Positions 2,683 to 49,729 of a DNA stretch of 64,000 nucleotides are shown piece by piece. The stretch comes from Dudresnaya verticillata (Eukaryota): positions 1,674,001 through 1,738,000 of the forward strand of contig OZ374565.1 of the NCBI GenBank assembly GCA_977862235.1, read 5' to 3'. The notes below the pieces were generated by a model. It was not told the origin of the DNA and made no database searches. It worked only from the letters and a program-made list of their open reading frames with translations. The position numbers and the translations under genes were made by a program. How positions within the stretch are numbered: the first letter of the stretch is position 1; each line of letters opens with the position of its first letter.

Positions 2683-5600
2683 GGAAGGGGTCATAGAGCC
2701 AGCGCGCTCTGAGTTCGCAAGTCCAGTGGTACTGGTGAAGAAGCCAGACGGACCCCTCCGTTTCTGTCTTGATTCCAGAAAGCTCAACGCGATAACCATC
2801 AAGGATTCTTACCCTCTCCCGCCAATGGACGAGTGCTTAGACTCGTTGGGCGACGCCCAGTATTTTACAACCCTTGATTGAAATTCGGGGTACTGGCAGA
2901 TACCAGTCGCGGCGTAGGATAAGCCAAAGATCGCTTTTACCTGTCATGCAGGTTGCTTTCAGTTCTGCCGAATGCCATTCGGTACGTGCAACGCACCCGC
3001 AACGTTTCAAAGAACAGTTGGCATTTTTATCGGTATTCCGATGGAAGTCTTGTCTAGTCTGCTTAGACGACATCAAAGTCTTTTCTACGAGTGTAAACGA
3101 ACACCTAGGTCACGTTTAAGATATCCTCTCTGTTTTGAAGAAGGCGGGTGTTTCGCTCAAGTTGAAGAAGTGTAATTTCTTCGCAAAAAGCGTGGACTAC
3201 CTTGGACACGTGATCCGACCTGGTCTCCTGGAGGTAGCTACCAAGAATACACAAGCCATCGAAGGCTTCAAGGAACCTACGACGCAAACGCAACTACTAG
3301 CCAATCAACTTCGTTGATTGGGCTATGCAACGTCTATAGACGTTTTGTACCGAACTTTGTACGCGTAGCGTCTCCGCTTATTAGGCTCTTACAGAAGGAC
3401 GTTTGTTTCGAATTTCCCCCATTCGATGAACGGCAACGCGAAGCTTTCGCTTTACTGAAGAAGGCCCTCATCGCGCCGCTGATACTCCGCCTTCCTAAGG
3501 AAGACAGACCCCTCTCGGTCGATACCGACGCGTGTGACTACCGAATAGGGTGCGCCCTAATGCAAATGGAACCTGACGGGACTCGACACCCTATTGGCTT
3601 TGGAAGTCGGGGCCTCACACCAGCAGAATGGAACTACTCCGTCGGCGAGAAGGAATGCCTCGCTGTAGTGTGGGCTATACAAATGCGCAGACCATATCTG
3701 GAAAGGTCTCATTTCGGCCTCTACACCGACCACCGCGATCTGAAATGGATGATGAGCATGACGGACAAGTCCGGACGTCTAGCGCGATGGCGTTTGCGTC
3801 TCTTAAAGTATGACTTCACGGTTCAATACCGTAAGGGAAAGAAAAATCAGATTGCTAACGCCGTCTCACGTTTACCTACCTATGGGTTTACTAAGTGGGA
3901 ACCGGATCTTGAGATCCCCTGCTTCATAATCGCTGATAGCTATAGAGAAGATCCACCTGAGCCTTCGGCGAAGGAAGAATCGCGAGTCAACACCAGGTCG
4001 CGACCTTTGGAAGAATGGGAGATGGAACCCGAAGATATTTCGTTCGAGTCGGGTCTCTAGGACGAGCAATTGATAGCCAACGTGGCTGAGAAGGAAGTGG
4101 ACGAGAAGAGTCTTTCCCTCCTCACAATAGAGGAACTCTTTCGCGCCCAACGAACAGATGAACTCTGTAAGGGTATCAAATTAGCCATCGAAGCGGGAAA
4201 ACCGGGATGCTATCTGGAGGACGAACGCGGACTTCTAGTCCGAAGGTCTTACATTGACCGGGCTTTACAGGTAATCATACCTAGAGTTCTTCAGGGGAGA
4301 GTCCTACATCTTGCACACTACCCGGATATGGCTGGCCATCCTAGTGGCACACGGATATACCACAACTTGAGAAAGCAAGTGTATTGGCCAGACATGACCC
4401 TTGTCGTTTACTCGACAGTGCGTAACTGTGTCAAGTGCGCGATGGAACGAGTCCAGTTGAGAAAACATACTTCGCACATGAAGTTGTTTCCGGCTACTAT
4501 GCCGCTCGAATTCCTAGGAATTTATATCTTGGGCCCGCTGCCGCGACCAAGCAAAGGGAACGAGTATCTTCTCGTCATCACCGATCGTTTCTCGAAATTC
4601 ACACGGGTAGTCCCGTTGAAGACGGTAACGGCTTATACGGTAGGGACAGCATTCTGAGAACAATGGGTGTATATCTACGGGCCACCCCATTACGTCTTGT
4701 CTGACAATGTATTGAAGTTTGCTTCCAAGTTCTTTATTGCCTTCTCTGGAATCCTTCGTATTCGGAATATGTTCACTTCTACATATCATCCGCAGACCAA
4801 CGGTCAGACCGAAAGGTTCAACCGCACCCTTCTAGCAGGGTTGAGAGACTTCATCGCAGATGATGAAAAGGAAAGGGACGAGTTCACGTCGGCACTGACG
4901 TATGAATATAATACGACCGTTCATCGCGCTACGGGATTTGCGCCCGTTGATTTCGTTCTATCCAACCCACCTACTTCCATCCTAATGGAGCAAGCTGAAA
5001 CGGTCGACGTGGCTAACGTACCTGCGACGAATGCCCAGAAGCGGTTGACAGCTAGACTTGAGAAGTTGATGGATACAGCATTGCCTCGGTTAAAATTAGC
5101 GCAACGTCGCTACGGGGCTAACTTCAACAACCGCATGCGTCTGAGAAATCAGAAGATAGGCCCGGGACAATGGGTCTTTCTCGAAAGAGAAACTCAGATG
5201 AAAGACTCTAGAGCCGTAGCGCGAGAAGGAAAACTTTCCCAAAGGCTCTGGGGCCTTATAAGGTCCTCAAGAGAGGAACGCACACAGTCGTGCTTGAAGT
5301 CAAGGGCGAGCGAGAGTCGATCTCGTTGGACCGCGTGACCTTGGCGCCCTCGCCAGACGAAGAGCTCGGGGCTCTAGGACAGGACTCCAGGATAGTTGGT
5401 GAAGCACCAGAAGCCGGGGACCATATATAACCACCTTCTGGGCCAGAGCCCACCGTTAACGAGGCAACCCCAACTGAAGGGGCGTCAAGAACTGAAGATG
5501 AGAAATGCTGAAGAGAGGCCGTGCGATCCGCAAACGCGACGACTGTTCTCCCTCCATTATTGGGAAACACTGACAATATAGATAACATCGTGGGCCCGGT

Positions 5601-7188: not shown

Positions 7189-8951
7189 CTAGTCCGATAA
7201 CAGGTCAATAACTTCATCCTCACCCAACGGAGGATTCGGCTGGGGTGCCGAGTGAGACACGACGACACGTCGCTCCTCGCGCACGACGTGACGACTTCCC
7301 CCTCCGCGACGCAGACCACGACCACGCCGACCCCCCTCTAACTCGCCTAACGCACGGCGACTTCCCGTTGGCTGGTCCACCTCCATGGCATCAACGCCAT
7401 TAGTCTGGCTACCCTGTACGAGTGGGGCCACTTCGTCTTCTTCCTTAACGAAGAGCTCAGTCTTCACGACGACGTCATGTTGCGCGGCTACGTTAGACTC
7501 TCCAGCAGTGGGCGAAGGCCCAGTCGATATATCCGCAGGATTCACGCCCTCTTGGCCGATACCGCTTGGTTGAACAACCAGGGAGTCGCCCTGAGAACGG
7601 CTAGCATCGGGCTGACCCCGAGAATCATCTCGGGGAGAGATCGTGTTAAGCAACTCGCCAGTGGCAATGAAGCAAGCCAGACATTTGCGTCGTAGGAGCA
7701 GCCGGCGCCATCTGTGGCATAGCTGCAAGACCAGCTGTGCCACGCACGCGCAGCTGTAAGACCAGCTGCGCCACGTGTGCACTGCTGTGCGCACGCTGTC
7801 AGCCGGTGGCGCCGAAGCCCCGCTGAACTGTAAGGAAGTGCGCAGTGGCGAGCGCAGCTGTAAGACCAGCTGCGCCACGTGTGCACTGCTGTGCGCACGC
7901 TGTCAGCTGGTGGCGCCGAAGCCCCGCTAAACTGTAAGGAAGTGCGCAGTGGCGCCCACGTGTGCAAGCGTTCGCGTGTGACACTGAAACTCCCATGTAA
8001 TTTCTACGTTTATTGCTTTGTAGTGTACAGCACCGTCTAGTGTAAGCGGCGGTCGAACGCCCTGCTGTCCTGCGCGCTGTGCGCACGCACTCCGGCGCAG
8101 AGCCGTTGAGTGCGTGACACGCGCGCGCGCACTCCAGCGTCGAGCCGTTGAGTACGTGTGGACCGTTCCGCGTACGAGCGCCCCCGGGTTACCGTTACCC
8201 GTACGCGTCGACGCGTGTTGGGGCGCGCCGGCGCACCTCCCGGGTTGGTGCCGCCGCAGGCCCTGTAGTATATCTAGTAGTCGCCCCTCTGGGGTTCAGT
8301 AAACCAGAAAAGCCAGCCTACGCCGGGCTTGCCCTTTCTGCTTTGGGTTTCTTTCCCAGTCCTTCGCCCTACGGCTTCCCTCTTTCGCTAGCCGTCTAGG
8401 CTTTCCTTTTCCTTTCCCTACCGTCGTCTTCGTGCCGCCCCACGACGGGGACGCAGGGATCCGGCCGCTGCCGCCCGCGTACGGTACGCCCCGTGCGCGC
8501 TCAGGCTTCGACGCCGTTGATCCGCGACCGTCGACGGCGCGCGCGGCCGACACCACCGCTCTACCACCACAGCTACCACCCTTCGACGGGTCTGGGTGCG
8601 ACTGATCGACCAGCGCAGCTAGACGTCAGTTCGACCTGACGTCTATGCCACACCATCGTCGATGATGAGACGCCAGCTGTATTGATCGGCTTGGGAGCCG
8701 AGCGGGATATGGTCGCTCCATGACTGGCCGAAGGTGCCACAACTGACTCTTCACGAGGAATCACCGAGATGTCACTACCTGTCATAGCATGCAGATCCAA
8801 ACCCTCGACCTTACCCGATTGCTTCTTAATTCGTGGCGTCGCTGAATGGCCGAAGCACAAACGCGGTTTGATGTCAACATCATTGGGGTATCCCTTCAAG
8901 GGCGGAAACCTTGACAAGTGGGCACGGAGCTTCTCCAAACGCTCCACAGGA
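7189..8951 (-). pseudogene. 3' part of Gypsy-1 antisense extra ORF (split by solo LTR)
   Basis: ORF 8573-8956 (PVERLEKL…SRFPPLKGYP) and the host part of 7189-7878 (low complexity, ends VIDLLSD); joins the 24290-25755 segment in frame when the 15-kb insert is removed. Confidence 0.6.
7713..8652 (+). mobile_element. Solo LTR (family B) with internal ~104-bp tandem duplication
   Basis: Ends TGTGGCATAG…CTATGCCACA; TSD CCATC on both sides; duplicated unit at about 7750-7955. Confidence 0.92.
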
Positions 8952-9275
8952 AACACAGGTTCCCCGCGTTTCAGAATGTACTTTCAAAAACAGACTGAAA
9001 TAAAACCCTTCCAAATTACATGCGTTGGAAAGGGGAGCGTCCCCTGAGCACGCTGGTGCAAACAGAGTAGAGAACTAAGTAGTAGTTCGCGAGTTATGTC
9101 GGTTGGCGTGCTCACCCGGCAGTGAGTCTGAAATAATAAATTTTGGTGTAATTTCTGAGATTTTTAATTCGGATTTTGAGGTAACCTAGGCTACTTCCGT
9201 GGGCCCCTCACCGCGCAGTATTCGCTGCCCCAACAGTGCAGAACTACTCGTCAGTTCAATGCCGCTCTCCCGATG
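8952..9275 (+). repeat. Left TIR
   Basis: AACACAGGTTCCCCGCGTTTCAGAATGTACTTT… is the reverse complement of 23967-24289; roughly 90% identical in the core by eye. Confidence 0.9.
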
Positions 9276-9980
9276 AGATGCAGAGTACTGCAGCACTGCC
9301 ATGAATTCCCTTCCCGGACTCAATCCGGTGCAACTTCGGGCATTCGTCACCCGGCAACTCCACGCCACATTCTCTACTGCCATGCACTCTCTGCTCTTCC
9401 CTCGGCGTCAGGACTTGCTCTGCGCATTCGCACTCGCCCGCTACACTCTCCCTCCTCACCGACATATCGATTCGTTGTCCTTAGCGACAACCAAAAACCC
9501 CACCCAGGTATTGTAATCCCTGTTTCACCAACGTTACAGCATGTGCTGCACAGGGCGACGGCATTCATGTAGCGCTCTTCCCAGTGTATACCGTCCTCTC
9601 CGTCGACCTACTCCATGTGGATTGGACTGGGTTCTGGTACTGAATTTTGTCCCACATTGCCGGGAATTCGCCGTGGTAATAAGTTAGACCTCGTTCCCCG
9701 CTCCGAACACCTCGTACTTCACCCGTGCAGTTCCCTACAGATGTAGAGAGCTGCAGCTCGCCAGACACCCCAGTCAAAACCACAAACGCCCATTTCTAGT
9801 CATGCACTTGAACCAACTTCGAAAGTGCACTCAAAGCCGTCTCCCGTAGTAGTCCACACCACGATTCCTTACTTGCGCCCGTTCCCCTCTTCAAGCGCCT
9901 CAGCATGATAAACATACCAAACCGCTCCCGTACTCACTTTATCTGTAACTAAAACCCCTCAACTACCTTTACCCTAAACC

Positions 9981-10250
9981 TCAGTCCGCTTCAAACTCCG
10001 GGTCTTCTTCATCGACCTCCACCACCCACCACCCTAAGAAGACTAGTATTCCCTCCAGCACCACCTTCACCGCCTCCCCAACTGCGACATCATCCGCAAT
10101 CATGACCTGTGCCCGCTCCATCAAGTCCAGACGAAGCCATATGGCGTCACTGGTATGCCGCCTGGCTCGCGCCAGAGCTTCTTCTAGCTCGGCGCGCAGT
10201 CTCCGCACCTCCAGCACCAACGCTTCCGGTGCTTCATCGCAACTCTCCAT
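9981..10250 (-). CDS. Small coiled-coil protein with acidic tail (transposon cargo)
   Basis: ATG start; TATAAAA on minus strand at 10296-10302; EVRRLRAE…T.DA..LRLD motif shared with 14631-15017. Confidence 0.5.
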   Translation of the reverse strand: MESCDEAPEALVLEVRRLRAELEEALARARRHTSDAIWLRLDLMERAQVMIADDVAVGEAVKVVLEGILVFLGWWVVEVDEEDPEFEAD

Positions 10251-10432
10251 CTAAGTCGTCTCCACCAACCCTCAAACCGACACTGTACCACTCCCTTTTA
10301 TAGACGGAACCGGGCACCATTCTGAAGTTTAGTTGACCTTGTTTACACCACCTCTCCACATCTTTTCCCTATTGCGACACCGCTGCAACGTCGGGAATCG
10401 TTAGCATGCAAACCGTTCTTGCTGCGTAGTTG

Positions 10433-11059
10433 TTATTCTTTTAGCGGACGCGGCGAATCCCAATCGATGGGCGTACTTGGTGGAGGAACGTTCACAATGT
10501 TCATCCCTGCGATTTTGCGCTTCTCTTCATGGACTTTGCGAACTGCTGTCTCATACTGCCGACGTTCTTGTGCTGACAAGTTATCCATGTCTATAATCAG
10601 AGGGTTGGGAGCCATCTCACGCGGGTTCTGCATTCCTCTCTCCCTTGCATCCCTGAGGAAGTTACTCAATGCGAAATCTTGCCCGCGCCCTGCCACACTG
10701 TATTGACCTTCTTTCCCTATTACATCTGTCATGAAACTCTTGAAGACCGACCTGTCAAAGAGCTTGATGCCCAGAGTTTCTAGACCGATTATTTCCTTCC
10801 CTGCGCTGCTGAAGTATATCAATATACTCTCCAATCTAGCCACTCCGATCCGTTTCACGATGTCCTTCGCACACTCCCCGTCCTTGCACAAGTCGGCTAC
10901 AGTCAGGGACTCCATTTTCTGGCCCACTTCCACCATATCAAATGTTACGTCCCGCAGCTCTGTCAGACATTGACGGTGTGCAGACGGGTTTCTGTGCTCC
11001 ATTCTGTTCTGTTCGACAGTGCCATTCATGTGCCATGCACGATTCAAGTTCAATGGCAT
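10433..11059 (-). CDS. Hypothetical 208-aa protein (transposon cargo)
   Basis: Uninterrupted ORF with globular-like composition; divergent from the MTase gene; TATATA near 11233-11238. Confidence 0.5.
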   Translation of the reverse strand: MPLNLNRAWHMNGTVEQNRMEHRNPSAHRQCLTELRDVTFDMVEVGQKMESLTVADLCKDGECAKDIVKRIGVARLESILIYFSSAGKEIIGLETLGIKLFDRSVFKSFMTDVIGKEGQYSVAGRGQDFALSNFLRDARERGMQNPREMAPNPLIIDMDNLSAQERRQYETAVRKVHEEKRKIAGMNIVNVPPPSTPIDWDSPRPLKE

Positions 11060-11648
11060 GCAGTCCTGAGTAACTGAGCGTGAGCCACTTCCGAGACTCG
11101 GTGAGGGGTGCTTCCTGTTGCAGTAGTCATCTCAACATCGCGGTGGCGGGCTTCGGTCTTCATTATTGCTTCGTGCCGTAACTGTCGTGAGAGATGTCTT
11201 ACAGGATATATCGTTCCCGCTTCTCTCCACAATATATAAGGGAGAGAGACCGAACTAATCACAAGAACCTGGGATTCGGATTGCCCACGTATTACTTGGC
11301 ACGCGTATTAGCACACGTTGTTGTCCTACCCAAATTTGATTGACGAGAATCAGAATCTCCCGTTTACCACCGTTTCGGTTGCACTCAAACTGTACGGTCG
11401 TCCCCAGGGCAGTTACATAACGTAAAGACACGTATCTTTATTCCGTCGTTGAAAGATGGCACACAGGATCTCCATGCGATATATAGTGTGATGTCTGTCT
11501 CCAAGGCTGAGACTATAGCGGTAGTCTGTGCGGTCACCGCGGGAAAGCTCACTTGCCATCTTGCACACCCCTTCCGGGGTTTGACTAAGTTCTTGAATTC
11601 GCTCTACAATCCTTCACGACCATCTAGGTGATCACCTTCATATTCGGA

Positions 11649-14600
11649 ATGGGTGGTGGGAAGCGAAAGTCGAGAGGTGCTGGACCTAAACAGATTCCTC
11701 GATCGACACAGACCGCAAAAGCTCTATTCGCCGACTTAATAGATGGTTCCGTCAACACAAGAGCAGACCCCGTTTTCTGTATTCCATTGACGGCCATTCG
11801 TCCTATTGTGAGGTCTGGAGTAGAGCGTTTGAAGGCGCGCTTTGATGCGTCGCGCAAGGACCTCCACGATCCTCGAGCCAGTGCAATTGGATATGATGCT
11901 GGTTCGGACGCTCCCATTGTAATTGAAATATCTGGGTCCTTTCTATCTTTGGTAATTGAGCACTTCCAACAAACGTTTTAAGAAAGACGGAACGTCATAC
12001 TCTCAAAAAGAATCCATGGAAGTGTCAAACAATCGAGCGAAATGGTATGGAGTAGTGGACGGGATGCACAGACTTATAGCTATCACAGAACTCCGGAAGG
12101 AGGATTACGAGACGTGTAAATCTTTCTCATGGCCTGCTACTGTTCTAAGAGGGAGCCATGAATTGCAGTCACTTCGACAATTGGCTCGTCACCAGAATGA
12201 CAAGCACGATTCTTCATTCTACATCGAGACTACCTGCTTCGATACTCTTCGAGGCCTGAGAGAGGAGGCAGATCGTCTCACAGCGGGGAATGGTGGAAAA
12301 CGTCCGAATACCACGAGGATTGCTGAAGCCTATGAGGGATGCAACCATTTCAGGGACAATACTGTTAAACAGACTGCTCAGACTGTCCTTAGAATTTACC
12401 GCGCAGTGATTGACACAATCGGAGACATTATAAACGAGGAGAGGGATGATTTGGTGTCGATTTGATCTACAACTGTGGATCACAAGGACATCAATAAGAG
12501 TGTGGACTGTCGAGTGTACCGCAAGTCCATCAAAATAACATCTCTCAAGTCCGCAACAGTGTTCATGAACGCGTCGAAAGCACCGGATGGTGTACAAGCA
12601 CAGATTGCGACTTTATACCATTTGAGAGAATTGCACTGTTTACACAACTTCAAACCGCTGTCTTACCGGTACACCGTGGAACAGTTTCAGAAGGCCACCG
12701 CCGCTCTTCGCAAGGTTCGTAAGTTTGAAGTTCTCCGGGAAAGTCACGAGTGGCCAGAGTCCATTCAGGTGTTTCACTCTAACCTTCTCAATACACAGAA
12801 GATGGATGATGAGGTTGCGGAGAATATAGGAAATGACAAGGACATTGTGGCATCTATACTGGAATTGTACAGGGATGTATGTCCCCAGGAAGCTGCTGTT
12901 AAGGAGAAGAAGCATGCCAACTTGCTTAAAAGCATTGTCGGAAATAAGACAACACATAGTTCAGGACATTGTCCAGATAATGCCTCTCTGGAAGGGTCGC
13001 ACTTGCACTGTGATAGTGCCGAGCGCACTGATTGTGGAGATTCCACTCCTTCACCAAAACCTGGGGCACCTGTTGATAAACATAATTGCAAGTCTGTCGC
13101 CGCGGGATGTGTTGACAGTACTACTGGTTCCGGAAAAAACGCCTCAGAACCGCATGGAAACGAGCAAGAATCACCAAATGAGGATGGAAACTGTGGCACA
13201 ACACATGAAAACGAGAAAGGGACCGCCAATAGCCATGCTGGAGACACCGGGGAGGACACGAATGGCCATCTGGAAGGGAATAAAAAACATACACGATCGT
13301 CCGCGTCTACCATACAGTCTGAAAAGCTCGAAACATCAGGTATTGGAGACGTCGATGCACTGAATTCAATGAGGATCAGTTGCCACCACATGAGGTGGCA
13401 GACGTATAACCAGTCCGTTCGAAACGATTCGAGCCCACTGTTCGACCTCGTACTGACGGACCCTCCCTACGGAATACCGCCTAGTCGTTCGAATGCTGGT
13501 ATATCTTACGACAATTATATCAGCGATGGGGAGATTAAGCAATTCATCGAATTCTGTCGAAGGGTCATTAAACCTGGTCACTGGGTTTTCATCTTCTGCA
13601 GTTTCATTAACTTCGCAAAGTATCAACGTGCTCTGCTTGATGCTGGGCTCTACTGCCCGGAATATCCTTTCACCGTTTGCAAAGATACCAGGACATTGCA
13701 GGGACATCGTAATGACTACCCACAGAATGTTACGGAAATAGCCGCGTTTGGTCGCCGACGGGGACTGTGTGGGGAAAATTCAAGCCTGACCTCTCCAGTC
13801 CACTTCACTTCTTGGGAAGCAAAGATTGGCGAAAGTTCGCAACCTTCTCAAGTGTTCCAGTATCGAGACAAAAGCTGCTGAAGCCAGGGACCAAATCCCC
13901 TGTTGTGGTAGAGGGTAAGAACGTTTTGGCTCTAATGGAGGTCATGACAACTTTCTGTCCCGATGGTGGACGCGTTTTGGATGCCTACGGAGGTACCCTG
14001 ACCACTTGCATTGCAGGTTTGAGAACGGGGCGTCCGACTGTGGGCATCGAGCAGAACCCTGCAACATTCAGACTGGCATATGATCGTTTGAAGAAAATCG
14101 CAGTCGATGTGTGTAATGAAAAGCAGCGCTCTTCCACACTCACTGTCGTCCAACGGCAACACCGCGAAACGACTACCGATATTGATTCCGCTGAGAAGAG
14201 ACGGAAAGTAGTACGGAATGAGAAGAATGTGATAACGTCAACTGTAACAGACCGGCAACCCGCCAAATAGAAACGAACTAGTCCGGAAGGCTCAGAATCT
14301 GATCCTCTGCGGGGGGCTTCGAAGGTAGTCCTGCTTCAAGACGGAGATAAAGTCGGAACAGCATCTGTGCAATGAAATGCTGAGAGTTCCAAATTAACTG
14401 AGACTCTTCACGGAGTGTCGTTGTCGAAGGTTGCGAGGGAAGGATAACGTTTCGTTTCTCTTTCCGGATTCAGCGTATTACCTGGATGTGAGTCCCGGAA
14501 GTATCCGTATAGTTTCACATGTCAAGAGGAAGCGCCGGAGACGCTGAGTGGGCTGGTGGGGTTCTTTGCATGGGATTTGCACAAGTTGGAATCGTCGTAG
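11649..14600 (+). pseudogene. ParB-like + beta-class N6A/N4C DNA methyltransferase + C-terminal En/Spm-Tnp1-like domain (disrupted)
   Basis: Basic N-terminus MGGGKRKSR; ParB-type WYGVVDGMHRL (about 12043-12075); motif IV FDLVLTDPPYG (DPPY 13459-13470) precedes motif I RVLDAYGGTLTT (about 13974) and motif II VGIEQN; frameshifts near 11970 and 13770; in-frame stops at 12463, 14268 and two more before 14600. Confidence 0.85.
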
Positions 14601-14630
14601 TACGATATTACGGTCAGAGTAACCTCCGAG

Positions 14631-15017
14631 ATGCATATTGGGTATAATCGCCAAGCACGAGCTTTTCAGAATCCTCCGTCTACAGCATTTATTCCAGATC
14701 GAGTGCAGCTTTGCTGCAATGGCCTTGCAATATCTGGAACGTGGACAACGATATACCCCATGAACTCCTCACATGTACATCGCGACCGAATTACGAGTCT
14801 TGACCCCACGACAACGTTGCGTGAAGTTCAGACTCTTCGGGCTGAGGTTCTTGAGATGAGGTCGTTCACTGATGACGCACGACTGCGCCTGGATGCCATA
14901 TATAGCGATGTTTTCAACCGCGTGGAAAAGGTGGTTGTACAGGTGATGAGGTTTGCCAGGCAGGCTCAGGACAGACTACGTTCGGTTGAAGAAAGGTTGG
15001 GAATTGAACACAGATAA
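14631..15017 (+). CDS. Small coiled-coil protein (possible true start ATG 14760)
   Basis: LREVQTLRAEV…FTDDARLRLDA; helical heptads. Confidence 0.5.
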   Translation: MHIGYNRQARAFQNPPSTAFIPDRVQLCCNGLAISGTWTTIYPMNSSHVHRDRITSLDPTTTLREVQTLRAEVLEMRSFTDDARLRLDAIYSDVFNRVEKVVVQVMRFARQAQDRLRSVEERLGIEHR

Positions 15018-15134
15018 GAGGTGGACATCGAGTTGGATTCAGATCCGGAATCACATTTGCCTCCCCTCCATTTTGATCGCCATTGCATTGCACACCGACG
15101 CTCCTAGTGAGAAGGGGCTAGAAGAGAAATCAGA

Positions 15135-15419
15135 ATGACGCGTAAAACACTCCAGGAGCTGAGAGGTGAGATAGACAACCTCCGTGTGCAGGTTCGACAA
15201 CTGCAAGCGAGAGAAAACTATCTCGATGAGCAACTTCGGGCCGTGGCACAAGCCGTGAGGGAGATTGTGCATGGTGAAGGCAGACGAGCTGTGAACGCGC
15301 TGAGGAGCATTAGGGGGAGAGTCAGTGCCCTATACAGGATGATTACCAGACTTTATGGTCCAGCACAGAACGAACAGAACCCCGGTTCGGATGGAGGGGA
15401 GGATACCGGAAATGTGTAG
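15135..15419 (+). CDS. Small coiled-coil protein
   Basis: LQELRGEIDNLRVQVRQLQARE heptads; intact ATG to stop. Confidence 0.5.
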   Translation: MTRKTLQELRGEIDNLRVQVRQLQARENYLDEQLRAVAQAVREIVHGEGRRAVNALRSIRGRVSALYRMITRLYGPAQNEQNPGSDGGEDTGNV

Positions 15420-15799
15420 CCATCGGCTATCTTTAGAGTGGTCCTGTGTCTCGTCAGAAACTGAAATGTAAACTGCGTTGTGTTGCATCTTTCCATGTCG
15501 TCTCACGCTGGAACATCATGACACGCGCCTGTATCCGTGCTTGACGGTAATGCCGCGGAGGACGACTCCCTGCGCTGTCCGCTGTGTGCAGGAAATTTGG
15601 CCATGCGAGAGCGTTTTTGCGTCACATGGGCGCCGGCTCTAAACCCGGCGCGGGGTCAGCAACGGTAGCCGCTGCGTGAATAGGAAGAACTGGCGGCAGT
15701 GTGGATGGTTCGCGGCATGGTGCGCGAGGTGCACCCAAAAATCTGGCGACGAGCGCCGGCAGGCGGCGGGCTGTGTACGACCGAGTCCCGGGAGCCCCG

Positions 15800-16136
15800 G
15801 ATAGGTTTTCACAGCACGACCTTGCAGAAACCTAAAAAACTAATATCAATATTGACGAATAGGTTTTCACGGCTCGCGAGATCGAATATCTGTGTAATAG
15901 GTATTTCTACACTGAGTCTGGAAATCCCTATATAGGTATTTTCCAAATCACCTTCACAAAACCTATCGTAATAGGTTTTGCTGTCGGCGCGTCAGAAATA
16001 CCTTTATAGCTATTTGTAAGCACGCAACCAGAATACCTATTAGAAAGGTTTTTGCGTCGCCGGGTCGAAAAAACCTAAAACCTAATATCGATATTGCCGG
16101 ATAGGTCCTGACGGCTCGCATCCACAGAAACCTATC
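15800..16136. repeat. Palindromic array of ATAGGT(T/A)TT / AA(A/T)ACCTA motifs (MITE or foldback-like)
   Basis: Ends GATAGGTTT…AAACCTATC; central palindrome AAAACCTATCGTAATAGGTTTT near 15958-15979; about ten motif copies; CCG flanks both ends. Confidence 0.65.
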
Positions 16137-16687
16137 CCGCCATCTTGGAACCTCACCCTCCCATCGCTGCAGCCACGCGGCCTCGCGGTCGGTATGACAC
16201 ACATCAGCAGAGCTGCTGCTGAATCCCTGCCCAAAACGTCCCCCTGCGCATGAGACCCACACACCCCAGCTGCCTGTACCGCGCTGAGCATGCTGCAGTT
16301 GCAGCGCCGCGTCGACGTCCGCCAGTTGCGGTCGAGGTCTGTCGCGTCTGCAACCGCGCTGAACGCGCGTGATTGCGCACAGGAGCGCAATACGCTCCCA
16401 CCGTTGCCGTGCACCACTCCGTTTGTACGGGGTGTCGCCGGTGCTGCATGCCCTCGCTCCGGACTTGCTCAGGAACTTGAACTCGTCCTCACCCGCCTTC
16501 TCCTCATCATACAGATCGCTGTTCGTTAACAACCTCAATATGGCAGGTAGTCGCAGGTTGTCACCTTTCTGCAGCACGACCTTCACCGTGTTTACAGCTT
16601 CCGACATGATGCAAGTAATCCCGCGACTGCACTAGTGGAGCGGAGGTCACGGACAGCTACATTGGGTCTATCAAAAAAGCTCTCCGA

Positions 16688-17271
16688 ATGACGTCCTGGT
16701 GGCTGTTCGCGAGGTTGCATCTTGAAAACACGAGGGCTAGTCGATACCCTTCTGTCTGGTATTGCATGGGCATAGGCTCCGTCGTGAATAACACCAACTC
16801 TCGCCATCAGTTTTCGTTCGCTCTTCTGATTAAGGAGTTGCTTGGCAGCCCCTCGCGTTGCACGATCACCGACCCGGTTATGAATGAGGATGACATCAAG
16901 ATGGCACGCGAGGCAGGCTTCGAGGTTGTAGCGGCGGACGCTTTCACAGTGCGTGTCCCCCTTCTGGGGCCTGTACCGTGCTCTTCATGCCGCACTGTGG
17001 GATAGCTCTAAACAAGAAGACACTGAGGCGATGTTCAGAGTTTTCAGACAAGGGAATTGTTCTCTTTGGCAACATCCTGTCTGGGCACGCAGCTTTCCCG
17101 CGAGGTTCCTATGACTTCTCGTTGCATGGTTTAATTGATAGGCTTATAGGTTCAAAGGCACTACATTAGAGGGAAAGTCTAGAGTCGAAGCGGTCAACGC
17201 GTGAGTTGGCTTTCAACGATCTTGCTCTGACCACAATCGAGGACCCAGGCAACGATTTGAACCACGATTAG
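16688..17271 (+). pseudogene. SRR1/BER1-like domain fragment
   Basis: CMGIGS…SRHQF…TDPVM..DD…LFMPHC…IVLFGN…AFND match the SRR1 domain pattern; one frameshift (about 16980) and one in-frame stop (17167). Confidence 0.7.
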
Positions 17272-17294
17272 CACGCTTGGCTACTGCATATGGC

Positions 17295-18035
17295 TCCATT
17301 TGTTGGATATTTGATGCTTGGTCTGTTCCGGGGCCGTGCCGCCTACAGTGTTCCGCAGGTCGACGCTCTGCTCAGGCTTCCACAAGTTGAGACACTCAGC
17401 GTTCGCTTCCGGTACGGAGATTTGAATCTGCTCTAGGGTTAACTTATCAAGGCTCACATAATTTTCCGGCTATACCAAACCAGAATACCAACCCGGTGTT
17501 GGGCATCGCGGCACGGAACACCCTGTTCGACCAGCCACTCCGCGAGCTCCGTAGCCATTAGAGCCGGGTAGCTCTCTGCTTCATACATGTGCTCCTTATT
17601 CACACGCATCGATGCAACCATTGGCCCGTAAACCGACAGCACCAGCTTCACAGTGTCAATAGCGTCGAAAATGGGCTCCTCATCCTCTTGTATGTCGCGA
17701 TTGTATTCCAGAGGAATTCCCTTCATAATCGTAAGCAAAGTCGCAAGGTCTCCTTAAACCCGACCAGTTTTTCACGTGTCAGCTCACACATGTATGGGTT
17801 CTTCTTTTGCAGCATAAGGAAGCTTGCCGTGCAAAATGCGTCGCCAAGTTCAACCCATCCAGCTTTTTGGCTCATCAAGAATATGATATCCTCACTGAGG
17901 CGGGACAGATGCATCATTACAATACTGCAAGTCGAAACCAGCTATGTTGCGAAGTCGCGGTCACTAACGGTGTCCAGGTAATTGTTGCATACGCCGCCAA
18001 AGCCCAGTTCCTTCGCGAAAAAATCGCGGAGGAAG
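17295..18035 (-). pseudogene. argH: Argininosuccinate lyase, 3' half, degenerate
   Basis: AKELGF…DTVSDRDF; MHLSRLSEDII; decayed signature ASFLMLQKKNP; MKGIPLEYNRDIQED; ATELAEWLVEQGVP; GGTAPEQ; frameshifted and lacking the N-terminal half. Confidence 0.92.
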
Positions 18036-18500
18036 CTATAAACACCGCTAGAGGTGTCCTGGACCCCGCAGCGTTTTTCATGACTCAAGCGTATATTGCA
18101 TGAATAGCTATCGCGTTCTCCAGCAAATATGAAACCGTCCTTGACAAATTGAGAATAAAAGTCAAGGGCCATTTCATAGTTGTAAAGCGAGGCAGATCTG
18201 CCTGCTATACTTGAGTGCACATATTGCGCAAGGGAGTGCGAAAAACGGGAGGCAGTCTACTTCAATCTGCAGCTTCATGCATAACGAAAGCGGATATGCA
18301 GGGCATCCAAATCGAACGTAGTCTTGGCAGTGTGGTAAGTTATGCCACATCAAGGACAATCAGCGTTACTTTATGTGAGCGTTACTTTATGCCACATCAA
18401 GGGCATTCAGAGTAGGTATTGCGTGATTAGCATTCTGAGGTTCATACCAATTCCCTTCTCCTTCAATCTAGGAGCGTTAAGACTTTAATGGACTATCGTG

Positions 18501-21500
18501 CTACGATTTCTGTAGGGAGTCTCGTATCTTCTTCTTAACGGCTTGGGGCAGACATCTATTAGACAGCTTCTCAAACTCAACGAGGACAGACGCGGCATCA
18601 ACATCGTCAGTCCATGCCTTCTTGGCTCTGGCGTAGACAGAAGGGTGATATTTACCGTCCCACGCGTCCTGTCCTGAACCAACCTCATACCACCTGACTG
18701 AAAGGGTGCAAACGACACACGCGCTGTCCTTCTTCCAGCCCTGTACCTGTGCGATCCAGAAAGGCACATTATTGTCCTTAATGTTCAGGACCACGAAACG
18801 GTTGACACCATACGTCAAGTCAGCACGCTGAGTCTCGTGCTCAGCGTCATCCTGCTCCTCGGCGTCGCTATCTGCATCCTCCCCCGGTTCACCATCGCTT
18901 TCGGCAACTTTCTCCGACTTTCTATATACACCCTTCTTCTCGAATACCTTTGTCAGGTCCCAATGCAGAGGCTCCTCGCGATCGCGGAAGAACTCATCGA
19001 GCAACTTTTTAAACTCCTTTAGCTTCGCGGAGTCATTGATTCGCAGCTCCTCTGAGAGTAAGCGCTTGCTTACTTCTTCTTTATCTGGAGGGGAGATTAT
19101 CGCAGTGGCAGGTGTCTTTTCCAACTCGGGTGGTAATAGAAAGAAATCTTGTTGAGGTCCCTTTCTTTTCAACGCCTTCCACGAATCCTTGCAACCCACT
19201 CGTACCTCACACTTCGTCTTATAATAAGCTGCAATAGAGCCGGAGTCCAGTTCCGATCTGGAAAATTTGAATTAGCGAAAGTGGGAGAAAGGCTCAACCC
19301 CCCAATACACTTCTCCTGTTTGCAGAGTCCGGAACAGTTCGCGATGTGTCGCATGCGCGTCACTACAGGCGCGGGTGTGTACGATTGGCGTAGTTTCTCC
19401 ATCAAGTCCTGCATATTCACCGCGTCGTGGACTCGAAGCCTCCTGGAGGTGCAACTAAAAGTTTGGTCGATGTCGGCATGAGTTTGCCCGATTGGCAAGA
19501 AAGACATATGCACTTCAGTGAATACCCCCACGACACGAGCGACTCCAAGTACGTGAGTAGGAACTTGTTCTAGTTTTTACGTGTACAGTTGTCTCCTTGC
19601 AGAAAGAGAGTGCCCCGGAGCTCCCCTCTCTCATATTTGGTTGCTAACACGCGTTGCAACGCCTCAGCAATATGGTTTGCGCCTGATTCGAACTCGGCAG
19701 TCATTGTCAATAACGACAATCGATCTGCAGCGCTGTGGTCCAGTACTACTATTAACTTTGCCGCCAGCGCATGACCCGTTGTGGCTTTCGATCGAACATT
19801 GAAGTGCGGCAGACCATACGCCGATTGATCTGCACCATCGATAATCATTGAGCAATACCTTGTCGGCGAGAGTTTTGCCATGTCGCATTTCTTCTGGTAC
19901 TAGATTCTTTCCTGCCTTACCATCTCTATATGCCGCCTGCGGCGCTCTCTCAATCCCTCTGTTGCAGTCTGGTCTGCACCCCCCGAAGTCATGCGGGCAA
20001 GTTGATCCCTCACAGTCTCGCACTCGGCACAATTCGCGAATCGGTGGGTTTTGCGCACTTTGATCCTTGCGCAATGTGCAGTCCAAACAGTGCAAAAGTA
20101 GCTCTGAGACGGCAGTGTCTTTCCTCGGTACAATTTGGAAAGCTCACGCACAAAAACCTCGTACACCGCCTGCTTTTGAAAGAAGGGTAGATGAAGCTCG
20201 TCTCTGTCCGGTATTGCGTCAGATGTAGCTTCCGCTAACCTCTCTAAGAAGCTCCCAATGAGTTCAAGAGAGCTGTGGAAGCATCTCGCGAGCTCTTTCC
20301 GGGGCCGGCCCGCCTCCGGGCCTGTCTTATTCCTTTCGTTGACGACTGCAAGACCTTCGAAAATCCAAATGCCCGTTCCCCAAACGTGTAACACACCGGC
20401 CTGGCGCTGAAGAAGTACATATTAGAGTTGGGTTCCAATAGGCTTCGTAGATATGCCTACCGAGCTGCTCCGTTCATTACAATCGTACGCCTCACTTCCG
20501 CCCGAATACACGTGCTTTCAATTGTCGCAAAACATTGTTTTGACTGACAACATAACCATGACGAAATTTTTGTGTTGTAAACGTCTTCGAGCAGTTTCCG
20601 GCGCTTGCTGGCCATCAAAGGAGCACAAAGGGTGCCTTACGGCCTGCTGTGATAGTTGTAGCTTCGCTCCTGCCGGGTGTGCCCTTGTGTTATTTCCACA
20701 TCCCCCTCTTACGGTCCAGTGCTAACAGCAGCAGTTGCCTCCCCAGGAGGGCTGGGCACCGCGCTTGCCTCAACGGGTCGTTCTATTTCGGCATCCTCCC
20801 CATCCTCAGAACTTTCTTTATCGTCCCTGTCACCCTCCGGTAAGTATGCCTCGTCACCACATTGTTCTGATTCCGAAGAATCCTTCGTACTCGGTCTGGG
20901 TATACCAGCTGTATTTGAAACCTCTGGTTGAGGTCATCATGGCGGTCTGGTTCGATGTGTGTATTGCAGAGGCGATGCGGTTAATACTGGCGAAGGAGCT
21001 GTTTGCGGGGGAATCGACAGTCAGCCTCTTTCCTCGTCGGCGACTCTTTGGCGGTGTTTTCATAGAAGGTTCCTCCCCGAGGAGACGGGTCGCGGGAAGA
21101 GGTGTATCTGCTGCAGTACTGGAGCGGGCGGCAGAATGTTTGTTGCGCATCTGCGCCACATCCCAAACATGCATTACTACCTCAAGACCGCGAAGAGTAG
21201 CAGGTGGTTCTTCGACGCCCTTGTAGGTATAACGGTAAGGCTTCGAAGCAAACTCTTCTTCTATCTTCACCTCGTAAATGACCGCCAATGTTTGCCCTTT
21301 TTCCTCAACCTCGTTCCGATAATGCCCATGTAATCTAGTGCAATAGCACCCTGTGCTGTCCGCTGCACTAGGCTTTGACGGGGCGAACGGCTCAGTGGTG
21401 CCGACTATCAGCCTTTTGTCGAGCAACTGAACACGCCTTCGAGTATTGGAATTAGCAGTTTCCTTACCATCATTACCTCCACGCACTGCAGCTGAAGATG

Positions 21501-21507
21501 TCGACAT
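18501..21507 (-). pseudogene. Sola-like DDD transposase (disrupted) with N-terminal Tnp1-like and C-terminal beta-barrel-like domains
   Basis: LP…K..VY…S.SYF..VW…F..CxxC; IIDGADQ (about 19825-19845); LFLQGDNCTRKN*NK (about 19590); FLPIGQTHADIDQTFS (about 19455-19500); C-terminal PFWIAQV…VRWYE; several frameshifts. Confidence 0.78.
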
Positions 21508-22331
21508 TTCTGGTCCAGCTTGCAGACCGTTGTCGTCTCCACGTCGCGGAGATCTCCTTCCAGCTGATGATACAACTGATAATTACTGTTGAGGAGGCGA
21601 AGACGGTGGCGGCGCTGGTGGCACGTCTAGGAGATATCGGAAAGTGGCATGGAACCACCTGATTTACCAGTCTGATTCTAGGAAATACTACCGGCGGCTA
21701 TAAGGGGTCATTTATTTATCTGCCTCGACGGAGAAAGCCCTAATCACAACAACCTAGAAGTGCTGCTCCGTCAAATGTGGCTTCGAAGAAAGGAAAATAA
21801 GATGAAGGCTCCAGTTTTCGTTTTCCATACTCGGTTCAACATATTCAAAACCGATTTGCACTGCATTGACTCTACAGTTGCTTCTTGCATACCATGACAC
21901 TTTCGTTTGCTTTGTACGCCATGGTGTAGAATCCTTGCATCTTTTACGAGCGGCACGGCAGGTTCGACGACTGGGCATAAATGTAGCGGAACAGCAAGAA
22001 AACAGACCTGTTTAGCCTCAATTGAGGTACGCTTAAGCGTTCTCCAATGGTAAGCCTAACCATCCACAAGTTGGATTCGAAAGTACAGCATCCATGGCAG
22101 GGTTGGGTGGCGGCCTACATGCCTTAGTTCGATTTGTGACGTTTGCCAGTATGCTGGCTGCTAGCACAACTGGAACACAGGTGCTTCCCAAGCCGTAAAA
22201 ACAAGAGTAACAGACTCGACCTCAAAGGGATGACTACATACAATGCACAATCGGTGGGATATTCGTACGCTCAGGGGTTAGCACTATGAACGCCTAGGAG
22301 ATGAATACTGCAAGAGGCAGCGCTACGCTTC

Positions 22332-22830
22332 TGGTTAAATGATGATATCATCTCTGGTCACGCCATTAGTAGCGAGGATACACTGCACCAGGCATAGAAT
22401 TCCAGGTTCACGTTAGTAGCGAATGGCGTTTTGAAATCTGGCATTACACACCTCCGATACCCTACAATGAAGGCTCAGTTACTCTGAGTTCGGCTTTGAC
22501 CATCACAGTTTATTGAGGGGCTGTCCCGGTATACACTTCGAACGTGTTGTATGAGGCGTCTTTCCAGTTTGGCATGGCCGTCGACCATCTCAAACACCTT
22601 CTTGAAGCAGAGTATATGAATGGGATTGTCTCTATGTTGCCTTATTCGAGACCTTTTTCTTGTCATTCCACAGATGCTGATAGTCGTTCCAGGAACGACA
22701 TATTCACGGGTAGAAACAGCAGATGACGGGCAGCATGCCCAATGTTCTTTTAGGGCCGCACTGGACATGTGCCTGGTGGCTAAGGGCTAGAGCAAGCAAA
22801 AAATGTTGTTAGGATAGATCCTCTGCACAC
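22332..22830 (+). pseudogene. Possible Ulp1/C48-like protease remnant
   Basis: WLNDDII at 22332, P…HWTC at 22759 and RIDPL downstream, in different frames; no clear catalytic Cys motif. Confidence 0.25.
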
Positions 22831-23709
22831 TCGATGACATGGGGAACAAACAGCTTGCTCACGTCGGCACAGTGTGGCAGACAGCGAAGCACTGTTCATT
22901 CGTTTCGTTTGGAAAGGGTGGATACCGGACCTGAGGGTGGACAACGGTGCCCAGCGCCTAGTCCGGATCGCTGCGCACGACTGGGCTCCGAACTCGCGCT
23001 CATGTCGAGGTTTTGGCGGCAGCTAAGTGGCCTGACAGTAAGAGCGTGAACGAAGAAGGATGCAGAGCTCGGCACGAAGGAGCCGCTAGTCGGTACAGGA
23101 CCTGGAGAGTCAAAAGTTCTCTATACCAGGCTGCACAATATTTACAACCGAGAAGACGAATATGGGAGAGCAGCTAACTCCGTAGACGGGAACAGTAAGC
23201 AAGGTAGCAAAGCTGTCTTCCAGGCCGTCTATCCTGAAGCGCATAACAAGGACCGAAAACGCGAAAGTCTTTACATGCAATAGGTAGAAACGTTGGTGTT
23301 GCAACTGCTATGCACAAAATGCGTTTTGCAACCGTTTGAGTACTCTCATCGCCATTGCAACTCTTCGCGTTGCCCCCCAGTCAAACCAAAATTATGGTCA
23401 CTGAATATTAGAGTAAAAGCTGGGGGCAAAATGCTCAGCATGCATGAAACACTAGAAGCGAACATTTTAGGTACGGTGTTATCGTAGAACGAACACAACG
23501 TCATTACCAGCATCGTTGAAGACGCAACAAAGTTCATAAAAAAAGAGAAACTATACTTGCAAGATATCAAGATGGACTGCCACGAGCTGGAATTCGGGCG
23601 GATACTCGGAACATCTGAGAGACCGAGAGTGATGTTGTACTTTATTGAATCTTTAACGTGCGCGGTTGCGCGGGCGACTAGGGCCCATTTGCAGGCAAAC
23701 GCCCTACCA

Positions 23710-23911
23710 ACCAGCTATCTACTGTATGGTACACTAGAGGGCTTACACCCGTAATCTGGAGGCAGTCCAGCCGGCTCCATGAGAAGAATGGGCAAACAAC
23801 CCCGGTGGGGAAAAATCCTTGAGAAAAATGTAGAGCCATGGGACCTGGCGGGAGTCGAACTCGGTTTCCCGGAATCAACGGCGCAGCGGTGAACCACTGC
23901 ACTACCCGTCC
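23710..23911 (-). mobile_element. tRNA-derived SINE-like sequence
   Basis: A box TAGTGCAGTGG (23894-23904), B box GAGTTCGACTCC (23851-23862), tRNA-sized head 23839-23911 with imperfect acceptor stem; 3' boundary approximate. Confidence 0.55.
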
Positions 23912-23966
23912 GCCTCCGCGGGCGGGTTAGTAGTACCAAAACCACACATGCCTTTCAACTAGACCA

Positions 23967-24289
23967 CATCGTGAGCTGCATTGGACCGACGAGTAGTTCT
24001 GCAATGCTGCGGCTGCCTGTACTGGGTGATGAGGGGCCCATGGAAGTAGCCTAGGTTACCTCAAAATCCGAATTAAAAAATCTCAGAAATTACACCAAAA
24101 TTAATTATTTCAGACCCCGCTGCCGGGTTAGCACGCCAACCAACATAACGCGCGTACTACTACTTAGTTCTCTACTCCTTTTGCACCAGCACGCTCAGGG
24201 GACGCTCCCCTTTCCAACGCATATACTTTGGAAGCGTTTTATTTCAGTCTGTTTTCAAAGTACATTCTGTAACGCAGGAAACCATTGTT
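23967..24289 (-). repeat. Right TIR
   Basis: Reverse complement AACAATGGTTTCCTGCGTTACAGAATGTACTTT… matches 8952-9275. Confidence 0.9.
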
Positions 24290-25755
24290 AGGACCCGGAG
24301 TCCTCATCCAATGGGACTCATAGTCCACCATAGCCTCCTCGACCCAGCCGGCGAGGCTATTAACAGTAAGATTCCGTAGCTCCCAATGCACTGCGAGGCG
24401 GATAGCCAAACCACGTTTGTTGAAGACGCCACACAAAACGTGATTGGCCTTACCATGGCCAGTTGCCGCGGGCGCGTACGGACCCTGAGATTGACCATCG
24501 ACAGTATAGTCGAATGACGGAACGTCTCCTGGAGTCTCCGGACGGGGGTCTTGCCAACTGGCACTGACCCACCCTTGAGTAACACCGGTGATACGGTTCC
24601 CCTCGTCCAAGACCAGGGGTCTCTCCTCTGTCGGCCCTGGCTGAATAAAGAAGTCCGGCAACACCGGATGTCAATCATCGGGATCAAATTCCATCCAATC
24701 CCCCTGTCATACACAGGATTGAAAGGACCGTTGTTCTCGGGGAGGTGGCGGTTCCTCTTGGAGATGCGGCTCCATCTGATACGGTCTATGAAGACCAACA
24801 AGGCTTCTTCGGCATTAGCCGACAATTTCGCAATACCCATCTCCTTGATGGCCGTAAGAATCGGCTGGTTAATGAAGAATAACAGACCATGTTGAGCCTC
24901 ATAGACGTGAGTCTGAGCGACTAAGACGATCCACTCGTCTCGAAAAAGACTCCAAAGGACACTCTCATCCATGGCTCGCGCTATCATGTTCAACCCGAAG
25001 TAAGCCACAATAGTGGGAGTTCCCCCGGGAATAGAGTAGGACAATTCGTACGACGCATGGTCGTCAGGGATCTGAGGGTACTTCGCCCTATAATATTCTG
25101 GTTTGATGGAAACCACTTCTTGACAGTGACACGGGATGAGACACCCCGTCTTGTGGCGCTGACGCCGCTCGAAAATCGAATACGCTAACGGCTTGGCCGT
25201 TTGAGGATTGTCAAGTGCGTACTTGAGATTCGTGGGCTCATCCCAGCGAATGATGTGGGCTAACGTATACGGGCAATTATCCCGGCCCTTCCGAATCAGC
25301 GGACGAGAGTGGTTGACCATACGCAAGTCCCACCCTCCACGAGAGTGGATTTCACACAACATCTCTAGTTGATAGTTCAGCTTTTCTGCCACGCTGTTCG
25401 TGAAGAACACCTCATGCCTGAATCGCACATATGCGAGGTCCAACAGATAGCATGAAGCCTCTCCCTGAAGGACGGGAACGAAACCGTTTGTGCCGGTCAG
25501 CATCTCAACCCGCGCACGGCTCACGCTGTTACACATACGACTTTGCGCCACGCGTACACCGCGTCGTTGGATATCTTTCCGACCAGCCCCAGCACGGGCT
25601 TTGATGTGCGCCAGGTTGGTACGCACCAACCAGTCGCGACTGTGCTTGATGGCAACCGGCACGCCCGAAGAGTCCACTTCGTGGCCGGGGACGCTCGCGC
25701 TAGATCCAGCCTCCCCATACGCAAAGCCGGAGTTATTCATCACAGGGATGAGCAC
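24290..25755 (-). pseudogene. 5' part of Gypsy-1 antisense extra ORF
   Basis: 483-aa ORF frameshifting near 24660 into the 24239-24664 frame; lies between pol and the 3' LTR on the opposite strand. Confidence 0.7.
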
Positions 25756-27332: not shown

Positions 27333-28019
27333 TGTAGTGTAGTAAAAGACACACCTGTAAGGAGAGCTGATCAGGCAATCCCAATAAGGAGTGATCTCAT
27401 ACAGCACCGGGGTAGTAGAGCTTAGTTCGTAGACCGAAGGGAGCACCTCGAGCGGCAACACCTGTAAGGAGTCAAGGAACGCAAAAGACAAGGGGGACGG
27501 TACAGTGCCAGGGCAGCTACACCAGGACGGAGGTAAGAGGAATCCGTGTACGGGGCTGGCGAGGGGAAACCGTAAAGGAGTATGAGGGTAAGGCTTAGGG
27601 TAAGTCACTTTGCCCAGGGTTGCGTACCCGTTTACCTGTAGGACTCGCGGTGGCCACCCATTAATATACTGGGAGATACACCCCGCGGTCCTGTCCGTGT
27701 GGGCCAGACCCCAATGGGTCTGGTCCACCAGGTGGGTCCGGCCCTACTCGTCCCGGTCACCATTGCGGACATGCTCAGTATCCTCATTGGCCGACTGACA
27801 CTACGTCCTGTACAGCATCATTACAATTACCTAATTACAAATAAATCAACTACTTGGCTCCTATTGGTGGTACGCGCAGACTCCAGCAGGGCATAGAGTG
27901 CTACTGTGTCGCTGCACTCCCGCTTCAGCTTTTGGCGCGCGCTTAGCAGAGCGCGGGCTGTCGACGGTCAGGCGTCGGCTCGCCCGCCGTCGGCACTCCG
28001 AAACGGCCACTTCACCACA
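27333..28019 (-). repeat. Gypsy-2 3' LTR
   Basis: Highly similar to 38352-38912 plus 44145-44268; TG…CA ends. Confidence 0.95.
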
Positions 28020-38199: not shown

Positions 38200-38912
38200 T
38201 CTTAGGATACCAAAACGGTCTCAACGATTGTTTTGCCTTGTCCTGCCTTTACACCAATACGGAGTTGTCACAAAGCTGATCTCCTACCGAAGTGGAGTCC
38301 AACGGAGATTATTTTACCTTGACGGTGTTCTAGGTCGGGAGCCCAATAAGATGTAGTGTAGTGAAAGGCACACCTGTAAGGAGAGCTGATCAGGCAATCC
38401 CAATAAGGAGTGATCTCACACAGCACCGGGGTGGTAGAGCTTAGTTTGTAGACCGAAGGGAGTACCTCGAGCGGCAACACCTGTAGGGAGTAAAGGGACG
38501 CAACAGGCAAGGGGGACGGTACAGTTCCAGGGCAGCTACACCAGGACGGAGGTAAGAGGAATCCGTGTACGGAGCTGGCGAGGGGAAACCATGAAGGAGT
38601 ATGAGGGTAAGGCTTAGGGTAAGTCACTTTGCCCAGGGTTGTTTACGCGTCTACTGTAGGACTCGCGGTTGCCACCCATTAATATACTGGGAGATACGCC
38701 CCGCGGTCCTGTCCGTGTGGGCCAGACCCCAATGGGTCTGGTCCACCAGGAGGGTCCGGCCCTACTCGTCCCGGTCACCATTGCGGACATGCTCGGCATT
38801 CTCATTGGCCGACTGACACTACGTACTGTACAGCATCACTAAAATTACCAAATTACAAATAAATCAACTACTTGGCTCCTATTGGTGGTGCGCGCAGATT
38901 CCAGCAGGGCAT

Positions 38913-49654: not shown

Positions 49655-49729
49655 CGGTCCCTGATGGGATTTGATCCCTCGACTTCTGCGTTGAACTCGA
49701 GACCGCTGTACCAATCAACCAATGATACG
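49655..49729 (-). other. tRNA-like (Pol III A/B box) sequence in the Copia-2 3' UTR
   Basis: A box TGGTTGATTGG (49711-49721), B box GGATCAAATCCC (49666-49677), TTTTT just downstream. Confidence 0.45.

Follow-up and report, generated by a model that had tools for sequence, protein, structure and literature searches.

A broken ParB-fold methyltransferase gene carried by a Sola-like transposon in Dudresnaya verticillata

The window analysed here is a stretch of 64,000 nucleotides of Dudresnaya verticillata DNA (contig OZ374565.1), with a GC content of about 52%, long genes free of introns and a dense population of LTR elements, a combination that would fit a red algal host. On its forward strand, at 11649-14600, lies a pseudogene to which intact homologues align in tblastn at E 1e-135 or better, and whose product would have comprised, in order, a ParB fold, a helical region, a linker, a beta-class amino-methyltransferase domain, a second disordered stretch and a C-terminal beta domain. 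The initial annotation of this DNA had reported five motifs in the gene, and each was found where it had been placed. KRKSR (11661-11675) is a basic patch and a putative nuclear localisation signal, and DGMHR (12058-12072) falls within the ParB/Srx-fold domain, the approximate limits of which (11715-12210) come from a structure model of the homologue P0004. This domain is followed by the helical region (12230-12920), a putative HTH supported by confident helices in the homologue model and by an alignment with the Pnob8 ParB structure. The methyltransferase domain (13365-14100), supported by PF01555, the homologue model and the family profile, contains FDLVLTDPPYG (DPPY at 13459-13470), the SAM motif VLDAYGGTLTT (13974-14006) and VGIE (14040-14051). 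The annotated 3′ limit of 14600 was likewise correct, as intact homologues align as far as 14588-14597. What had been overlooked were the C-terminal beta domain as a unit (14322-14588, forward strand; about 95 aa, matching no named family, with a family HMM E of 8e-22 and confident model strands) and the transposon surrounding the gene.

When three intact relatives were mapped back onto the window, the gene proved to be spread over three frames, the reading frame shifting near 11970-11986 and again near 13780-13806, and it has in-frame stops at 12463, 14268, 14373 and 14445. Forty alignment columns are conserved in 85% or more of the family, and this copy keeps 37 of them, the median for intact members being 38. 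With two frameshifts and four stops the copy, as it now reads, cannot be active in its present form, which bears out the earlier caution that its product might not be.

The gene is surrounded by an element of 15,338 bp (8952-24289). Its left terminal inverted repeat (TIR; 8952-9267, forward strand) starts with AAC and its right one (23973-24289, reverse strand) ends with GTT; over 318 bp the two are 88% identical (281/318, E 1e-114), and the same four bases, AGGA, are duplicated on either side (8948-8951 and 24290-24293, forward strand). The flanking DNA resembles retroelement sequence, and a flanking open frame continues in register across the insertion once the 4-bp duplication is allowed for, a coincidence expected one time in three by chance. 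On the reverse strand the element contains a broken transposase unit (18501-21507) with matches to DUF7869 (E 5e-18 and 4e-6), candidate D-D-D residues near 19839, 19593 and 19468, which were read by eye from the translation, and a C-terminus that is weakly BAH-like (E 0.053, below the cut-off). Sola elements are described as having a 4-bp target-site duplication and TIRs of 11-1124 bp (PMC10741241), and the AGGA duplication and the TIR length of the present element agree with both. A homologue search recovered no Sola reference protein, and we call the element Sola-like by its ends, target-site duplication, DUF7869 match and candidate triad.

How long ago did the gene break? The outer parts of the TIRs differ at 20 of 243 sites, or about 4% per copy, and at 4% divergence 4.0 stops would be expected in the 986 codons of the gene (95% range 1-8), where we observed four. 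Since the stop count fits neutral decay at the divergence of the TIRs, the gene was apparently intact when the element inserted and has evolved neutrally since; it looks to have decayed together with its transposon. CpG depletion was absent within the element (o/e 0.95). These observations bear on whether the gene is a host-domesticated epigenetic writer like Marchantia's 4mC enzyme or bdelloid N4CMT, which carries a chromodomain. The initial annotation had leaned towards a host-adopted, N4CMT-like writer, and the prokaryotic-type beta-class fold and the basic N-terminal patch would suit one, but the gene is enclosed by the TIRs and the target-site duplication of a transposon and has decayed at the neutral rate, and neither a chromodomain (homologue profile scans) nor SPPY (53 relatives) was present. 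The idea is thus not supported, and we consider it very improbable.

The element carries other candidate genes and gene fragments. Divergent from the methylase gene is an open frame of about 208 aa (10433-11059, reverse strand), a candidate accessory gene with no match in Pfam. Downstream of the methylase gene, two small coiled-coil-like frames (14631-15017 and 15135-15419, forward strand) gave only sub-threshold coiled-coil matches in Pfam; they share coiled-coil-like leucine repeats with a further short frame at 9990-10250 (reverse strand), and all three are possibly accessory genes. A tRNA-like stretch just inside the right TIR (23838-23911, reverse strand), noticed by eye, is possibly a tRNA-derived SINE; ARAGORN predicted no tRNA anywhere in the window. 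In addition, the element has captured two broken host-type fragments, one of an SRR1-domain gene (16757-17229, forward strand; PF07985 E 1e-11) and one of argininosuccinate lyase (17463-18031, reverse strand; PF00206 E 2e-15, PF14698 E 7e-6, PDB 2e9f E 3e-19). Such fragments raise the possibility that the methylase gene is also passive cargo, captured in the same way and with no role for the element. However, it is of full length, its family comprises 209 clusters, one of its domains recurs in the transposase unit and an element of Ectocarpus has such a gene in the same position, and we regard passive carriage as having very little chance of being correct.

Several other mobile elements lie in the window. 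A copia-type element at 38913-44140, with LTRs 98% identical (6/371 mismatches), is nested at the edge of an LTR pair (27333-27897 and 38352-38915; 94%). A second copia-type element, at 49338-55523, has LTRs about 95% identical, and five of the eight transitions between them fall on CpG sites, which hints weakly at methylated cytosines. A Harbinger-like pair at 45417-47354 has DDE_Tnp_4 on the forward and DUF6818 on the reverse strand, and two gypsy-type pol regions (2683-5381 and 60765-63453) are 76% identical.

To characterize the N-terminal half of the protein we used a structure model of the intact relative P0004, which is 38-40% identical to the window gene. A first model from 11 sequences (pLDDT 51) was superseded by one from a 99-row alignment, with a mean pLDDT of 85 and a pTM of 0.77. 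In this model, residues 23-176 match PadC (Z 9.5, rmsd 2.4, 97 residues aligned), KorB (Z 7.8) and sulfiredoxin (Z 7.3), and the Pnob8 ParB structure aligns over residues 15-345 (Z 8.5). No sequence profile of the ParB families matched the window gene, its intact homologues or the long relatives scanned; among the latter there was one DndB profile match (E 5e-4). Among the Atlas neighbours of the ParB-like region, PF02195 occurs in 15-35% of members. Because sequence profiles are silent, the assignment to ParB rests on fold and Atlas neighbours: the ParB-like domain that had been proposed from DGMHR stands at the level of structure, and the ParBc-type match looked for with it is absent. Fungal DUF3723 clusters also appear among the Atlas neighbours of P0004 residues 15-260 (score 0.92); DUF3723 genes commonly accompany the Starship elements of fungi as accessory genes, and this may be a parallel use of the ParB fold by giant transposons. 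Within the helical region, the modelled helices suggest an HTH. The basic patch at the N-terminus is found in 18 of 53 long relatives, relative to a control mean of 5.3 and maximum of 13 in 200 draws. The NLS-like element noted earlier is therefore present and enriched in the family, and its nuclear role is one that we infer: the patch may serve nuclear import.

A candidate target for this DNA-binding region begins 1.2 kb downstream of the methylase gene. There, at 15802-16134 (no strand assigned), are eight 33-bp inverted-repeat units of the form TAGGTWTT-N17-AAWACCTA, a candidate parS-like site identified by motif count and fixed spacing. We had sought such an array with the inverted-repeat arrays of Bostrychia in mind. 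Nine of the window's ten matches to TAGGTWTT fall within 283 bp, 2.3 being expected in 64 kb, and ten matches were reached in none of 100 shuffles. Half-site pairs occur eight times at a unit length of 33, whereas none of the other lengths between 18 and 59 gives more than two; the half-site matrix was trained on seven of the units and the eighth was found by the matrix. The spacers are constant at 17 bp and variable in sequence, a combination that a rigid dimeric protein bound to duplex DNA might require. The periods of the array (58, 38, 35, 39, 35, 38 and 57) are nearly mirror-symmetrical, which suggests growth through inverted duplication. We rejected as a further site the paired half-sites at 24052 in the right TIR, which do not rise above the background of 1-7 pairs per length. 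From the ParB fold and the position of the array, we propose that the ParB/helical region would bind it. The linkage of gene, array and transposase was seen in one copy of the element. In our search, which left most subscription papers outside, we found no published report of a fixed-spacing array of this kind.

The C-terminal beta domain links the methylase gene to the transposase. A second copy of it (21145-21435, reverse strand) was recognized at E 3e-20 by the family HMM, for which other proteins had supplied the sequences, and lies at the transposase unit's 5′ end, within an open frame; a fusion to the transposase would hinge on one putative frameshift near 20940. The two copies are 29% identical and no other methylase remnant adjoins 21145-21435, from which it follows that the second beta domain is old; a recent duplication of the 3′ end of the methylase gene is ruled out as its source by the low identity. 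The domain has no match in Pfam and no usable match in the Atlas, no row at Z of at least 5 covers it in a structure search with the whole protein (922 residues), and no longer homologue of it was present among 45 candidates. It may resemble the Tnp1/En-Spm-like domain DUF8039. Within the same bounds of the literature search as for the array, no report of a beta domain common to an accessory protein and a transposase was found. Such sharing may bring the methylase and the transposase to one partner or target.

The initial annotation had made its reading dependent on intact copies, and they exist. A search with the middle segment of the gene, in which stops were read as X, gave ten relatives among 7496 candidates, five of them with single open frames of 887-1010 aa that are 36-41% identical to the window gene. 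An exhaustive search with a 471-aa segment extended the family to 209 clusters at 50% identity (E at most 0.001); 150 of these clusters were listed and 182 proteins fetched, of which 61 were of at least 750 aa, leaving 53 long relatives after removal of eight near-duplicates.

The variation in catalytic motifs among these relatives is considerable. Motif IV reads DPPY in 16 of the 53, DPPF in three and SPPY in none, and is non-canonical (no D/S/N-PP-Y/F/W) in 34. The SAM motif is kept in all 19 canonical relatives and in 14 of the 34 non-canonical ones, 23 of the 53 retain DGx[HY]R, and the C-terminal beta domain is recognized by the family HMM in 21. One well-supported clade of 19 proteins (P0062-P0124) is wholly non-canonical, with EPPx or ALPS-type words in open frames of 830-1050 aa, and its members are candidate pseudo-methylases. 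That 34 of the 53 are without a canonical motif, and that only 14 of these retain the SAM motif, leads to the conclusion that a large part of the family can do without catalysis; judged from these sequences, its loss is tolerated. Conversely, the seven closest intact relatives of the window gene form one well-supported clade with DPPY in 7/7 and, as canonical members keep the SAM motif, the lineage of this gene was likely once catalytic.

Does the protein then act mainly by binding? In such a reading the ParB part would load on the array, spread or bridge, and shield the element from silencing by the host or aid the transpososome, with the methylase fold as a scaffold or reader and catalysis optional. 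The 34 relatives without a canonical motif IV, including the clade of 19 with its long frames, argue for this, as does the beta domain common to the methylase gene and the transposase unit. Against it are the DPPY of the whole nearest clade and the SAM motif of every canonical member, and the active-site residues of ParB are variable too. We consider binding without obligatory catalysis unlikely, although as the main rival it deserves to be taken seriously.

If the lineage was catalytic, which base would it have modified? Motif IV (DPPY, 13459) precedes the SAM motif (13974), the beta-class order that had been proposed from the motifs. The two methylase halves of the window gene match PF01555 at E 3e-5 and 1.7e-4, neither of which reaches the curated cut-off; that cut-off is passed by all seven close intact homologues, and 43 of 45 further long relatives match at E of at most 0.01. 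The family profile matches M1.HpyAVI (E 2e-18), and residues 515-775 of the P0004 model match CcrM (Z 24.0, rmsd 3.1, 228 aligned), followed by M.BceJIV (23.1), M1.HpyAVI (21.9), M.MboIIA (21.6), N4CMT (19.5) and M.PvuII (19.3). Both the class and the Rossmann methyltransferase fold are supported, and the concern that the best homologues might be RNA enzymes was unfounded, as METTL3-type enzymes reach a Z of 15 or lower. The top structural matches are adenine methylases, the Z margin over the cytosine enzymes being modest. Most N4C enzymes have been associated with SPPY, and N6A enzymes with DPPY (PMC8885841, as far as its available text goes), and DPPY favours 6mA over 4mC as the product of the family enzymes; together with the nearest structures it makes 6mA the predicted mark. 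An active self-marking methylase that writes N4-methylcytosine would find support in the common fold of N4CMT and M.PvuII, and the accessible part of the report on a related Ectocarpus protein leaves the target base open (PMC12477816), but SPPY occurs in none of the 53 relatives and its published association with N4C enzymes speaks against this variant, which we think quite improbable.

The initial annotation had also suggested horizontal acquisition, with ParB-methylase fusions of phages and prokaryotic mobile elements as the model. Phage matches are confined to the methylase domain, the best rows having 26-27% identity over 25% of the length, and none of the 181 matching phage records among 50,697 searched reached 80% query coverage; PHROG matches are similarly limited. 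A viral scan yielded no family locus among 24 candidates, and scans of metagenomes and prokaryote genomes each returned one unrelated bacterial methylase locus (22% identity) and no family locus. The methylase domain likely has an ancient prokaryotic ancestry, and this part of the suggestion stands, whereas phage records do not extend past a quarter of the protein; if horizontal acquisition happened, it would have been ancient and family-wide. ParB-HTH-fused methylases of another class are described in chlorophytes and chytrids in the part of the survey by Iyer and colleagues available to us (Iyer 2016, PMC4738411).

We conclude that the pseudogene is a broken accessory gene of a Sola-like transposon, and we propose, with moderate confidence, that its intact counterparts mark the element that carries them. 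The intact product would enter the nucleus through its basic N-terminus, its ParB-type DNA-binding region would bind the element's own fixed-spacing inverted-repeat array, and the fused methylase would add 6mA nearby, a mark that may keep the element open for expression or transposition (anti-silencing or self-licensing). In favour of this design, Sola1-1_Ec32 of Ectocarpus has a matching layout, and self-modification by a methylase has been proposed for that element in the accessible portion of its description (PMC12477816). A more elaborate version is conceivable, in which a clamp loads at the private array, the methylase marks, and the shared beta domain couples marking to transposition, such that only marked or clamp-loaded copies move and the degenerate relatives are derived readers or clamps; this self-addressing system we consider distinctly doubtful. 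With a dead copy and a design already in print the element can surprise us only to a limited degree. Self-marking transposons have been proposed for algae, and in the reports we found they are undemonstrated; what this element offers is a well-defined predicted target, units of 33 bp in which the spacer is always 17 bp. Given that site, intact relatives that can be expressed and a natural contrast between DPPY and motif-less clades, the self-marking idea is directly testable, and a domain common to the accessory protein and the transposase would give a clue to the link between marking and movement.

How does the gene compare with known systems? Its product has the fold, the motif order and the DPPY of the PF01555 adenine methylases CcrM, M.BceJIV, M1.HpyAVI, M.MboIIA and M.RsrI, at 15-20% identity, but those enzymes have no ParB, helical or beta domains and are not known from eukaryotic transposons. 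In parS the half-sites are adjacent; those of this element are 17 bp apart. As in ParB/parS systems, repeated inverted sites lie near the gene at the candidate array, but unlike in those systems no partner ATPase accompanies it. ParB/parS systems and phage ParB-methylase loci also place a helical, DNA-binding-like region after a ParB/Srx fold, as described in the part of the survey available (Iyer 2016, PMC4738411). Bdelloid N4CMT is another case of a eukaryote with a prokaryotic-type beta-class enzyme, and has the same fold (Z 19.5), but according to the accessible text it belongs to the host, has SPPY and deposits 4mC, with which it marks transposons (PMC8885841), whereas the window gene is transposon-borne, has DPPY, is fused to ParB and is broken.

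The closest parallels are in other algae. The Plavaka elements of Bostrychia (bioRxiv 10.1101/2025.02.11.637652, as far as its available text describes them) are giant DNA transposons that, like the present element, combine a methylase of the PF01555 family with a ParB-like protein and have inverted-repeat arrays near the gene for the latter; in Bostrychia, however, an EnSpm-type element splits the parts between a methylase with SET (PAG2) and a ParB protein with a 2OG oxygenase (PAG3). No SET domain was matched in the 52 long relatives scanned, and by its fusion of ParB to methylase in one protein the window gene falls outside the PAG2/PAG3 cassette. Sola1-1_Ec32 of Ectocarpus, of 21.5 kb, has, opposite its transposase, a gene whose 1104-aa product joins a ParB-like part to a 4mC/6mA methylase; its ends read AACCG-CGGTT, its imperfect TIR measures 282 bp, and its target-site duplication of 4 bp tends to end in A. 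The accessible account of it mentions no array of fixed spacing and no domain in common with the transposase (PMC12477816). The overall design is thus already published, and the array and the shared beta domain are details for which we found no record in print. The Dudresnaya element is shorter (15.3 kb), a dead copy, and has captured ArgH and SRR1 fragments; in the layout and ends from which we judge the likeness, rather than in protein sequence, both are giant Sola or Sola-like elements with a ParB-methylase gene opposite the transposase, AAC...GTT ends, an imperfect TIR of about 300 bp and a 4-bp target-site duplication ending in A.
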